NCBI RefSeq assembly: GCF_048403405.1
Contig: NZ_CP183129.1
DNA from: Escherichia coli
GTDB lineage: Bacteria > Pseudomonadota > Gammaproteobacteria > Enterobacterales > Enterobacteriaceae
Direction: 5' to 3' (one strand)
DNA length: 64,000 nt
The notes under the pieces were generated by a model. It was not told where the DNA came from, made no database searches, and saw only the letters and a program-made list of their open reading frames with translations. The first letter of the stretch is position 1. Each line of letters begins with the position of its first letter. Positions 49,851 through 52,220 of this stretch are shown here, one piece after another. The position numbers and the translations under genes were made by a program.

Positions 49851-50543
49851 CTAGTGATAACCACGCGCGGTCATAAAATCCGTAATCGCTTTTTCTGCAT
49901 CAACCAGCACCTTTTCCAGTGGCTGATTAGCATCGATATCAACCAGTTGTGCACCGCCAAAGGTTAACTGTGGCGTTATGGCTATCTTCCTTTCCAGCGA
50001 TTCTCTTTTGTGGTCAGGCTTACGCGCGCAGGCCACGTCCAGGGAGACATTGAGTTTGATGACCAGATCAGGTTTATGGCTCGCCATCCAGTGAAACGCT
50101 TTACGTTCCTGGCTTGCCAGCCATGAGACAAACCGGCCGCCTTCAACGTTAGGCGGGAACACTGTACCATCGTAAGCGCCAGGAATTTGGTCCTGAGGAT
50201 AACGGTCGGTTAGAACAATTAACCCGCGACGACGACAGGCAAGCATATGACGAAAGCGCAGTAAGCGACGGGCGACAAACGCTGTAATTACCAGCGCCGG
50301 AACTGGTCCTGGCAATTTTTTTGCTGTTTTCACCTGATTTCGTTCAATTGTTTTATGTAAGGATTTTCCCATCAACGGTAATTTTGTCACTGCACGACCG
50401 ACATTTCCGGCTTGTTTTCCTAAATGAACTCTTTCGGCAGCACCATATTTTTCGACAACGGTAATGAGATGTTCACACACCGTTGACTTGCCTGAACCAT
50501 CGCTACCAATAACGGCAATTAATGGAGGTGTTATTGACTGCAT
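49851..50543 (-). CDS. yghT: P-loop NTPase (putative kinase) YghT
   Basis: 230 aa; Walker [10 protein letters not shown]; paralogous to YghS/YghR. Confidence 0.85.
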
Positions 50544-50716
50544 GAATATATCCTTTAATTTAAATATCCATTAAAAATATTTATTTGGTTAATATGTTTT
50601 TATGAAAGCGTAATTCAGGTCAATGTCACAATTAACCATTGTCACAATAAGGTTGAACGGATATTCTGAGCACGGACCACGTAATATTCAATACATTATT
50701 TGCTGCCGGGTTTTTC

Positions 50717-51430
50717 GTGAATCAACGTAATATGTCAATAATTAATTCCACGCCAGTGCGTGTTATTGCCATTGTAGGATGTGATGGTTCAGGTAAATCG
50801 ACCCTCACGGCAAGCCTGGTAAATGAACTGGCAGCAAGAATGCCAACAGAACACATTTATCTCGGGCAATCGTCCGGGCGAATTGGCGAATGGATTTCAC
50901 AGCTCCCTGTTATTGGCGCACCTTTTGGGCGTTATCTGCGAAGTAAAGCGGCACATGTGCACGAAAAGCCCTCAACACCGCCTGGCAATATTACTGCGCT
51001 GGTTATCTATCTGCTTTCCTGCTGGCGGGCGTACAAGTTTCGCAAAATGTTGTGTAAAAGCCAGCAAGGCTATCTGCTCATCACCGACCGCTACCCGCAG
51101 GTTGAAGTGCCGGGTTTTCGCTTTGATGGCCCGCAATTGGCAAAAACCACGGGCGGTAACGGCTGGATAAAAATGTTAAGGCAGCGCGAGCTGAAGCTGT
51201 ACCAATGGATGGCGTCTTATTTGCCCGTATTGTTGATTCGTCTTGGCATTGATGAACAAACCGCGTTTTCGCGTAAACCTGACCATCAACTGGCGGCGTT
51301 ACAGGAAAAAATCGCCGTTACGCCGCAACTGACATTCAATGGCGCCAGGATCCTTGAACTGGATGGTCGGCAACCAGCCGATGAAATTATGCAAGCGTCA
51401 CTACGCGCAATTCACGCCGCGCTTTCCTGA
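50717..51430 (+). CDS. yghS: P-loop NTPase (putative kinase) YghS
   Basis: 237 aa; GTG start; Walker A GCDGSGKST; paralogue of YghT/YghR. Confidence 0.82.
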   Translation: MNQRNMSIINSTPVRVIAIVGCDGSGKSTLTASLVNELAARMPTEHIYLGQSSGRIGEWISQLPVIGAPFGRYLRSKAAHVHEKPSTPPGNITALVIYLLSCWRAYKFRKMLCKSQQGYLLITDRYPQVEVPGFRFDGPQLAKTTGGNGWIKMLRQRELKLYQWMASYLPVLLIRLGIDEQTAFSRKPDHQLAALQEKIAVTPQLTFNGARILELDGRQPADEIMQASLRAIHAALS

Positions 51431-51461
51431 TCACCAAAATGGATAGGGGATGATTTAACGA

Positions 51462-52220
51462 ATGGATGCACTACAAACACAAACTGTTAATAGTACAATC
51501 GCGCCGCAGCCCAACTACATTCCGGGGCTGATTGCGGTGGTCGGGTGTGATGGCACCGGTAAATCCACACTGACCACCGACCTGGTGAAATCGCTGCAAC
51601 AACACTGGCAAACCGAGCGGCGCTATCTGGGGCTGCTCTCGGGCGAAGACGGCGACAAAATCAAACGATTGCCGTTGGTTGGCGTCTGGCTCGAACGGCG
51701 ACTGGCGGCCAAATCCTCGAAAACCCAAAGCATGAAAACCAAATCTCCAGCGCTATGGGCGGCGGTGATTATGTACTGCTTCTCGCTGCGAAGAATGGCG
51801 AATCTACGCAAGGTTCAGCGACTGGCGCAAAGTGGCGTTCTGGTGGTCAGCGATCGCTTCCCGCAGGCTGAAATTTCGGGCTTTTATTATGACGGACCGG
51901 GGATCGGCGTCGAACGTGCGACCGGGAAAATCAGCATGTTTCTGGCGCAGCGCGAACGGCGTTTATACCAACAAATGGCGCAATACCGTCCTGAATTAAT
52001 CATTCGCTTGGGGATTGATATTGATACTGCCATCTCCCGCAAGCCTGACCATGACTATGCCGAGCTGCAGGACAAAATCGGCGTCATGTCGACGATTGGC
52101 TATAACGGCACAAAAATTCTTGAGATTGATTCCAGAGCGCCTTACAGCGAGGTGCTGGAACAGGCACAGAAGGCGGTTTCTCTGGTTGCCATCGTTTCTG
52201 ACCGCCGAAGTTTAACTTAA
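51462..52220 (+). CDS. yghR: P-loop NTPase (putative kinase) YghR
   Basis: 252 aa; Walker A GCDGTGKST; paralogue of YghS/YghT. Confidence 0.85.
   Translation: MDALQTQTVNSTIAPQPNYIPGLIAVVGCDGTGKSTLTTDLVKSLQQHWQTERRYLGLLSGEDGDKIKRLPLVGVWLERRLAAKSSKTQSMKTKSPALWAAVIMYCFSLRRMANLRKVQRLAQSGVLVVSDRFPQAEISGFYYDGPGIGVERATGKISMFLAQRERRLYQQMAQYRPELIIRLGIDIDTAISRKPDHDYAELQDKIGVMSTIGYNGTKILEIDSRAPYSEVLEQAQKAVSLVAIVSDRRSLT

Follow-up and report, generated by a model that had tools for sequence, protein, structure and literature searches.

The window analyzed here, a 64,000-nucleotide stretch of Escherichia coli DNA (contig NZ_CP183129.1, assembly GCF_048403405.1), carries three neighboring genes, yghT, yghS and yghR, beside a cluster of lipid-biosynthesis and export genes. 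From left to right the region contains pitB; yghT on the minus strand; yghS, yghR, a yghQ-like gene, hyp274, a YtfJ-family gene, lptF2 and lptG2 on the plus strand; spt, acpR, cerR and aasR on the minus strand; yghO on the plus strand; and glcC (Table 1). Positions 49851–52220 enclose exactly the three genes of interest, with yghT divergent from yghS-yghR, and their open reading frame (ORF) coordinates agree with the RefSeq annotation of E. coli strains that are 100% identical (over 3 kb). An earlier note on this DNA had singled out the three products as P-loop proteins of 230–252 amino acids with a shared Walker A variant and a divergent yghT, a description that the ORFs, BLASTP comparisons and motifs all confirmed. 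As described below, the trio belongs to the thymidylate-kinase superfamily and is genomically associated with sphingolipid genes in several bacterial groups.

In pairwise BLASTP comparisons, YghS and YghR were 44% identical (E 2e-62), YghT and YghS 35% (E 3e-52), and YghT and YghR 34% (E 3e-47), and an alignment of all three contained 53 invariant columns. With sequence similarity this far above chance, the three proteins are paralogs. Common to all of them are a Walker A motif of the form G[SC]DG[ST]GKST and the motifs DR[YF]PQ and RKPDH. They are all basic (pI 9.6–9.9) and lack a transmembrane segment. The ABC ATPase signature (LSGGQ) was not found in YghT, YghS or YghR by a regular-expression search, and matches to NCBIfam ABC models were confined to the P-loop; the earlier note was therefore right to set them apart from ABC ATPases.

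Family models for thymidylate kinase (TMPK) scored the three proteins below their thresholds. TIGR00041 gave 22.6, 24.6 and 30.9 bits against a cut-off of 83.25, NF005923 gave 25.4, 17.6 and 20.3 against a cut-off of 193, and the match to the Pfam Thymidylate_kin model (PF02223) was nonsignificant (independent E-value 0.18). A sequence search of the PDB with YghR alone returned no matches. On the other hand, a profile of the whole family matched TMPK chains with an E-value of 8e-13 in three blocks corresponding to the P-loop, the DRY segment and the lid, and an hhalign comparison with E. coli Tmk gave a probability of 95.6% over 190 columns at 17% identity. A first AlphaFold2 run using a three-sequence alignment reached a pLDDT confidence score of 62 and was discarded; the YghS model built from a 76-sequence alignment reached 91.6 and is of the P-loop nucleoside monophosphate (NMP) kinase type. 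Remote homology searching and structure prediction had been set beforehand as the test of the idea that these proteins adopt a small nucleotide-kinase-like fold, and the outcome was a kinase-type fold, not an unrelated non-kinase one.

The trio shares with the dTMP (thymidine monophosphate) kinase superfamily of PF02223 and TIGR00041 a P-loop of the form G-x-[DE]-G-x-GK-[ST]-T, a DR[YH] motif after strand 3, a lid segment and a C-terminal 'IDA.qP.eeV' block. It differs in an insertion of about 40 residues in the acceptor region, in occurring as three paralogs within a lipid locus, and in the replacement of both dTMP-binding stretches. In the hhalign alignment, REPGGT of Tmk was paired with YLGxGSG in the loop after strand 2, and DRHDLSTQAYQ was paired with DRYPQxExPGxxDGP. 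These Tmk stretches (REPGGT, and S-T-Q-A-Y-Q after DRH) are what we take to be its dTMP contacts. The canonical tmk gene sits elsewhere in the genome. We conclude that YghT, YghS and YghR are members of the thymidylate-kinase superfamily that make up a previously uncharacterized branch but are not dTMP kinases, and that the dTMP kinase name assigned to them by the Prokaryotic Genome Annotation Pipeline is an over-annotation. A helix-3 arginine was considered as the equivalent of the TMPK acceptor-phosphate arginine; the match in position was exact with PfTMPK but two residues out with E. coli Tmk, and it was not relied on. Neither Pfam nor NCBIfam gave a match of the diacylglycerol kinase (DAGK) type for the trio, and the N-terminal helix and distal helix bundle that accompany the PPK2 fold were not found.

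Five genes before glcC identify the adjoining lipid cluster. The genes spt, acpR, cerR, aasR and yghO correspond to ECD_02850-02854 of BL21, which were published as sphingolipid (ceramide) genes of E. coli (PMC9386255), so the lipid cluster next to the trio is a bacterial sphingolipid (ceramide) locus. The Caulobacter counterpart of LptF2 is required for sphingolipid transport (bioRxiv 10.64898/2026.04.12.717747). By RefSeq annotation and family scans, the E. coli locus contains no glycosyltransferase, CDP-alcohol transferase or DAGK-type kinase, and the only candidate head-group enzymes within it are the three kinases plus hyp274.

To survey homologs, one genome per species was scanned, yielding 317 relatives, and the best 79 loci of these were retained for the locus counts. 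They span the Enterobacterales, Lysobacterales (Rhodanobacter, Luteibacter), Betaproteobacteria (Nitrotoga, Gallionellaceae, Sulfuritalea, Methylotenera), Halomonadaceae, Sphingomonadales, Acetobacteraceae, Myxococcales and one metagenome-assembled genome from the Planctomycetota. The window proteins were compared with these loci by tblastn, and a gene was scored as a neighbor if it lay within 10 kb of the trio. Both spt and acpR were neighbors in 49 of the 79 loci (35/37 from Enterobacterales and 14/42 from other groups), cerR in 46, aasR in 42, yghQ in 60, hyp274 in 52, and lptF2/lptG2 in 35. The YtfJ-family gene was confined to the Enterobacterales in this set (36/37 loci). Linkage to the sphingolipid genes was retained across at least four gene orders in the Enterobacterales and in other orders in the Lysobacterales and Betaproteobacteria, and it was also seen in the Halomonadaceae and Aeromonadales. 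A compact S-R-T-Q operon is present in Sphingobium, Sphingopyxis and Acetobacter, and in the two sphingomonads hyp274 comes next; the flanking genes of the Sphingobium S-R-T-Q-hyp274 operon are unrelated. A GT4 glycosyltransferase was present in only a few of the loci, and pitB, adjacent to the trio in only 10 of them (all Escherichia, Citrobacter, Pseudocitrobacter or Hafnia), was dismissed as a coincidental neighbor. Relatives in the AlphaFold database come from Zymomonas, Azotobacter, Gluconobacter, Acetobacter, Commensalibacter, Sphingobium, Novosphingobium and some Pseudomonas. Sphingomonads and acetic acid bacteria produce sphingolipids. Zymomonas, Azotobacter and Gluconobacter also figure in published comparisons of spt genes (PMC11324152, PMC9386255).

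A gene for an LpxO-like Asp/Arg beta-hydroxylase follows yghR in 17 of the 79 loci (for example locus L085, 13636-14394), often together with a DUF2147 gene. It was not found in the E. coli locus. Where present, this neighbor suggests acyl-chain hydroxylation of the same lipid.

In a neighbor-joining tree, all 221 kinase domains taken from the 79 loci fell into one of three clades (T, 71; S, 78; R, 75), and each of the three E. coli paralogs belongs to a different clade. Exactly one T, one S and one R gene were found in 57 loci; 12 loci, mostly betaproteobacterial, had only S and R within the available flank, and four had an extra T. The motifs GxDGxGKST, DRxPQ, DG and RKPDH were kept at 90% or more in each of the three clades, and each clade had its own strongly conserved signature at residues 47–75, the region matching the acceptor (NMP) site of TMPKs. 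Because the clades are clean, the motifs intact and the signatures private, the triplication is old, and the three copies look catalytically competent and are not interchangeable. Such copies would fit either three different reactions or a hetero-oligomer. In nearly all loci, yghR comes immediately after yghS; natural fusions exist both of S to R (P0121, P0044) and of T to an R/S-type domain (P0031, P0122, P0123).

Table 1. Features of the yghTSR region and the adjoining sphingolipid locus. Coordinates refer to the window.
Feature	Coordinates	Strand	Description
yghT	49851..50543	-	230 aa; T-clade thymidylate-kinase-like P-loop phosphotransferase (predicted); pI 9.9; no transmembrane segment
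yghT/yghS spacer	50544..50716		173 bp; divergent yghT / yghS-yghR control region
yghS	50717..51430	+	237 aa, GTG start; S-clade kinase paralog; AlphaFold2 model thymidylate-kinase-like, pLDDT 91.6
yghR	51462..52220	+	252 aa; R-clade kinase paralog; GCDGTGKST, DRFPQ, RKPDH
yghQ-like	52266..53615	+	449 aa; MOP (Wzx/Polysacc_synt) flippase; presumed sphingolipid flippase
hyp274	53615..54439	+	274 aa; basic conserved hypothetical protein
YtfJ-family gene	54448..55011	+	TIGR01626, 216 bits
lptF2	55042..56112	+	second-copy LptF-type permease
lptG2	56109..57188	+	second-copy LptG-type permease
spt	57223..58395	-	serine palmitoyltransferase (PMC9386255)
acpR	58395..58643	-	specialized acyl carrier protein for Spt (PMC9386255)
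cerR/epi	58675..59589	-	NAD-dependent epimerase/dehydratase-family reductase, ceramide synthesis (PMC9386255)
aasR	59586..61307	-	acyl-AcpR synthetase, fatty acyl-AMP ligase (PMC9386255)
yghO	61679..62821	+	bacterial ceramide synthase-type N-acyltransferase, aca/bCerS (PMC9386255)

Some additional features of the locus were noted. The lptF2 and lptG2 products score above the NCBIfam equivalog cut-offs for the housekeeping proteins (LptF, 318 against 230; LptG, 303 against 240), and RefSeq for this reason names them plain LptF and LptG, indistinguishable by name from the genes of the essential lipopolysaccharide (LPS) transporter. The longest ORF for lptG2 (56028-57188) has a GTG start 81 bases 5' of the annotated start codon, an ATG at 56109, and runs into the end of lptF2; starting at the annotated ATG gives a 4-base overlap of the kind typical of translational coupling. 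Between the convergent pitB and yghT genes, positions 49812-49840 contain a GC-rich hairpin with a 12-bp stem followed by a T-rich tract that looks like a terminator for pitB and is possibly bidirectional. The yghT/yghS spacer has one sigma-70-like match on the plus strand (50639-50667), which is not above chance expectation; in general, the matches returned by promoter and terminator scans were no more frequent than in shuffled sequence.

The product of hyp274 has invariant basic and histidine-containing motifs (RAKYKHLRFA, LQD, FHDxRK and NGLMGxxHD) and no significant match in Pfam, NCBIfam or the PDB, the last of which was also searched with a profile. A faint similarity to the CHAD domain was seen among its orthologs: the Pfam CHAD model matched 1 of 14 at E 0.089, precomputed faint PF05235 hits were present on four, and one carries the UniRef name CHAD domain-containing. 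The hhalign comparison with the CHAD domain of E. coli YgiF gave a probability of 0.2% but was uninformative, as the YgiF CHAD itself matches no other CHAD domain in the PDB. The CHAD similarity of hyp274 is thus a lead, not a result.

The wider family was explored with a profile search of 1.84 billion representatives, which returned 2187 relatives, 143 of them with E < 1e-30; domain architectures were read from the best 150. About one third of these are single-domain proteins. Another third or so (∼50) have an N-terminal domain of ∼260 residues with a G-x-x-D-x-D motif and invariant K/D/D/D/H residues (for example P0163 and P0168). This domain is weakly NTP_transf_5-like (6 of 15 members at E ≤ 0.001), and a profile of it found nothing useful in the PDB. 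The possibility that hyp274 is its free-standing form was rejected at an hhalign probability of 3.9%. A few of the best 150 are fused to a Polysacc_synt_3 MOP flippase (P0257, P0209), and one has a glycosyltransferase-like N-terminal region (P0261). In one locus (L081, 5721-9482), a gene combining the nucleotidyltransferase (NTase)-like and kinase domains directly follows wzx in a Wzx/Wzy polysaccharide cluster with a sulfotransferase, and after it comes a gene for a further P-loop protein without the DR motif, in which LLDQG replaces DRYPQ. The pairing of this kinase family with MOP flippases is therefore older and broader than the sphingolipid context, and it speaks for kinase action on a lipid-linked substrate ahead of flipping, on the cytoplasmic side.

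Among 5426 complete E. coli genomes, the kinase region was present in 4784 and the region from hyp274 to spt in 4086–4196, or about three quarters. In K-12 MG1655 (L087, 3130146-3132408), an IS5 element lies between yghO and a 3'-truncated yghQ, and the stretch from hyp274 to aasR, eight genes in all, is absent. The yghRST genes of K-12 are accordingly relics of a recent IS5-associated deletion, and the deletion accounts for the incomplete locus of this strain. Studies in K-12 list yghS in the H-NS regulon and found it 3.1-fold up on SlyA overexpression (PMC5797941), and the yghT/yghS spacer contained an in vitro FlhDC peak in genomic SELEX (gSELEX) (PMC9962212). The sphingolipid locus is probably silent under laboratory conditions. 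Repeated yghQ mutations arose in two of three chlorhexidine-adapted K-12 lines, and deletion of the gene doubled the minimum inhibitory concentration (PMC8170033), so the remaining yghQRST module of K-12 may still affect the envelope. In agreement with the earlier note, the literature that could be searched holds no functional assignment for the trio, only listings as uncharacterized ATP-binding proteins; subscription journals were mostly outside its coverage, and an assignment may exist there.

Taken together, the fold and the conserved genomic association support the earlier proposal that the trio, lying beside a lipid-biosynthesis and export cluster, supplies kinases for that pathway. The interpretation we favor, somewhat above even odds, is that YghT, YghS and YghR are non-redundant ATP-dependent phosphotransferases acting on the sphingolipid head group at the inner face of the inner membrane, after which YghQ flips the lipid and LptF2G2 exports it. 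Head-group phosphorylation had been suggested before; a linkage that holds over several gene orders and bacterial classes now ties the trio to the lipid pathway far more firmly than any single locus would. In the proposed mechanism, the three soluble, cytoplasmic and strongly basic enzymes would each hold ATP in the Walker A loop G-x-D-G-x-G-K-S-T, and the arginine of DR[YF]PQ together with the RKPDH lid would position the transferred phosphate as in thymidylate kinases. The dTMP pocket would be replaced by the acceptor-site signature conserved in each paralog. The substrate would be the head group of the sphingolipid made by Spt, AcpR, AasR, YghO/bCerS and CerR, presented at the cytoplasmic face of the inner membrane. 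YghQ, the MOP flippase, would then flip the phosphorylated lipid, and LptF2/LptG2 would extract it in the direction of the outer membrane. Three enzymes could carry out three different, possibly consecutive phosphorylations, or they could form a hetero-oligomer with an S-R core and T as a third subunit. The donor (ATP), the acceptor (the lipid head group), the sequence of steps and the assembly into a complex are all inferred.

Several observations weigh against this assignment. The acceptor cannot be read from the sequence. A ceramide gene was lacking within 10 kb in 30 of the 79 loci, although many of these are short-flanked; the sphingomonads among them have sphingolipid genes that are described as scattered (PMC11324152, PMC9386255). 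In roughly 600 E. coli genomes the trio is present but the remainder of the locus is not. Knock-outs of the trio in K-12 were unremarkable in a silkworm virulence screen, but K-12 is without the ceramide genes. Distant relatives occur in Wzx/Wzy polysaccharide loci without spt, so the superfamily branch as a whole is not sphingolipid-specific. Finally, Zymomonas and Azotobacter have both the trio family and CpgB-type ceramide kinase genes (PMC11324152), and the role of the trio is therefore not just that of a missing ceramide kinase.

The alternative that fares best is that the trio forms a heteromeric kinase that makes or uses oligo- or polyphosphate, with the CHAD-like protein binding the chain, either free or anchored to ceramide and exported. 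Its model is archaeal PPK3 of Sulfolobus, in which the products of two thymidylate-kinase-annotated genes (cPPK3 and rPPK3) assemble into a heterotetrameric polyphosphate kinase; a PPX is encoded alongside, as is a CHAD protein, whose gene shares their operon (PMC12995831). The very basic character of the three proteins fits this idea, as do the S-R and T-R/S fusions, which would be expected of a heteromer, and the DRY arginine, a clamp for donor and acceptor phosphates that is kept in all three clades. The faint CHAD hits on hyp274 orthologs and the single CHAD name in UniRef point the same way, but the similarity is slight (E 0.089 in one ortholog of 14) and the hyp274 profile had no CHAD hit in the PDB. 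The arginine also cuts the other way, since the PPK3 regulatory subunit is without it yet all three paralogs keep it. The family profile is closer to canonical TMPKs (E 8e-13) than to STK_15430, the S. tokodaii catalytic-subunit homolog (E 1.7e-5, P-loop only). No PPX, SixA or Pst genes were found in the neighborhood, and pitB is adjacent in few loci. E. coli, moreover, already has PPK1. We regard this alternative as rather unlikely.

A lipid-directed variant of the same idea combines it with the sphingolipid assignment. Here, the trio would be a bacterial, lipid-directed counterpart of PPK3, possibly heteromeric, that builds a pyro-, tri- or oligophosphate on ceramide; the CHAD-like protein would hold the chain, the MOP flippase, a member of a family that normally handles lipid-diphosphate cargo, would flip the product, and LptF2G2 would deliver it to the outer membrane. 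We consider this variant unlikely. If true, most E. coli would have an anionic, phosphate-rich surface sphingolipid resembling lipid A that is silent under laboratory conditions.

It is also conceivable that the kinases modify some other MOP-flipped, lipid-linked substrate, such as an undecaprenyl-diphosphate-linked glycan or an envelope glycolipid, and that sphingolipid genes are merely frequent neighbors. This would account for the distant NTase-kinase relative whose gene immediately follows wzx in a locus that also encodes glycosyltransferases, Wzy and a sulfotransferase, for the fusions of some relatives with Polysacc_synt_3 or with a glycosyltransferase-like N-terminal region, and for the Sphingobium operon that lies apart from the ceramide genes. 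K-12 likewise retains yghQRST without spt, and yghQ mutations there give the chlorhexidine phenotype (PMC8170033), but the K-12 state results from a recent deletion. Unlike the distant relatives, the T, S and R clades adjoin spt-acpR-cerR-aasR in 49 of the 79 loci despite repeated rearrangement. The Caulobacter sphingolipid locus has a MOP flippase as well (CC_1166), and the E. coli locus contains no glycosyltransferase. We judge this possibility to be distinctly unlikely.

The earlier note had offered regulatory NTPases as its own alternative, and one could imagine the trio energizing or regulating the flippase or the LptF2G2 transporter. LptF2G2 is encoded in the locus without an ATPase of its own, some relatives of the trio are fused to a MOP transporter, and the P-loop is all that is firmly known of the three proteins. 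However, their fold, which includes a lid and a DR motif, is of the NMP-kinase type rather than that of ABC or SIMIBI proteins, and the ABC signature is absent. Three distinct conserved acceptor-site signatures argue for substrates. To our knowledge, MOP flippases are not driven by ATP, and the LptF2G2 proteins of Caulobacter bind the housekeeping LptB (bioRxiv 10.64898/2026.04.12.717747). A role as NTPases is thus very unlikely. Least probable of all, to the point of being highly improbable, is that the trio consists of genuine dTMP or NMP kinases supplying nucleotides for activated head-group donors. The homology to TMPKs is real and RefSeq and UniProt use the dTMP kinase label, but the TIGR00041 and NF005923 scores are far under their cut-offs, the Pfam match is nonsignificant, the Tmk segments DRHDLSTQAYQ and REPGGT are replaced, an essential tmk is present elsewhere in the genome, and three divergent paralogs in a lipid locus would be unexpected for nucleotide supply.

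What appears to be new here, as judged from comparative sequence analysis, is an exapted thymidylate-kinase branch that is maintained as a set of three paralogs in sphingolipid loci. An intact locus is found in about three quarters of complete E. coli genomes and in many other Enterobacterales, and its product and head-group chemistry are undescribed. Assigning functions to the trio and hyp274 would provide an experimental handle on the E. coli sphingolipid and its role in the outer membrane, be it in barrier function, the binding of cationic peptides or antiseptics, or host interaction. If the favored assignment of the trio as sphingolipid head-group phosphotransferases is correct, it would add to archaeal PPK3 a second case in which thymidylate kinase paralogs were exapted to act on a non-nucleotide acceptor, and it would correct a widespread dTMP kinase annotation.

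Among characterized systems, PPK3 is the closest functional analogy that we found for the trio. In both cases, exapted dTMP kinase paralogs are encoded side by side, the proteins are basic, and the dTMP site is replaced, in PPK3 by a basic cleft (PMC12995831); the CHAD-type neighbor of PPK3 may have a counterpart in hyp274, whose CHAD similarity is faint. The second-best structural match of the YghS model was 2plr, the structure of STK_15430. There are nevertheless clear differences. The E. coli system has three paralogs, and all of them have the DRX arginine (DR at 90% or more per clade) that is missing from the PPK3 regulatory subunit (PMC12995831). The neighbors of the trio are a MOP flippase, LptF2G2 and ceramide genes, with no PPX or SixA seen, and in sequence it is no closer to cPPK3 than to canonical TMPKs. 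Because of these differences in paralog number, arginine, neighbors and sequence, we have not filed the trio under PPK3. A more general parallel is the lipid A 4'-kinase LpxK. This P-loop enzyme adds phosphate to a membrane lipid precursor on the cytoplasmic side, ahead of flipping and Lpt-type export. LpxK differs from the trio in being membrane-anchored and in belonging to another branch of P-loop kinases.

Within sphingolipid systems, the obvious comparison is with CpgB (CCNA_01218), the ceramide kinase of Caulobacter, which has a DAG-kinase/LCB5 fold with a GGDG motif (PMC10331486). Like the trio, it is a soluble kinase whose gene belongs to a bacterial sphingolipid locus, and the position in the pathway would be the same, the first head-group step, if one member of the trio phosphorylates ceramide. 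Homology between the two was rejected, as CpgB is of the DAGK/LCB5 type and the trio consists of P-loop proteins. The Caulobacter locus for the synthesis and export of ceramide diphosphoglycerate (CC_1152-CC_1168) resembles that of E. coli in having spt, acpR, cerR, aasR and cerS (yghO) together with a Polysacc_synt-type flippase (CC_1166) and LptF2/LptG2. By the published descriptions of its 17 genes, it differs in encoding CpgA/B/C/D, a phosphoesterase and a HIT protein, and neither a TMPK-like kinase nor hyp274. E. coli instead has the kinase trio, hyp274 and the YtfJ-family protein, and given this difference in gene content, its sphingolipid is expected to have a different head group.

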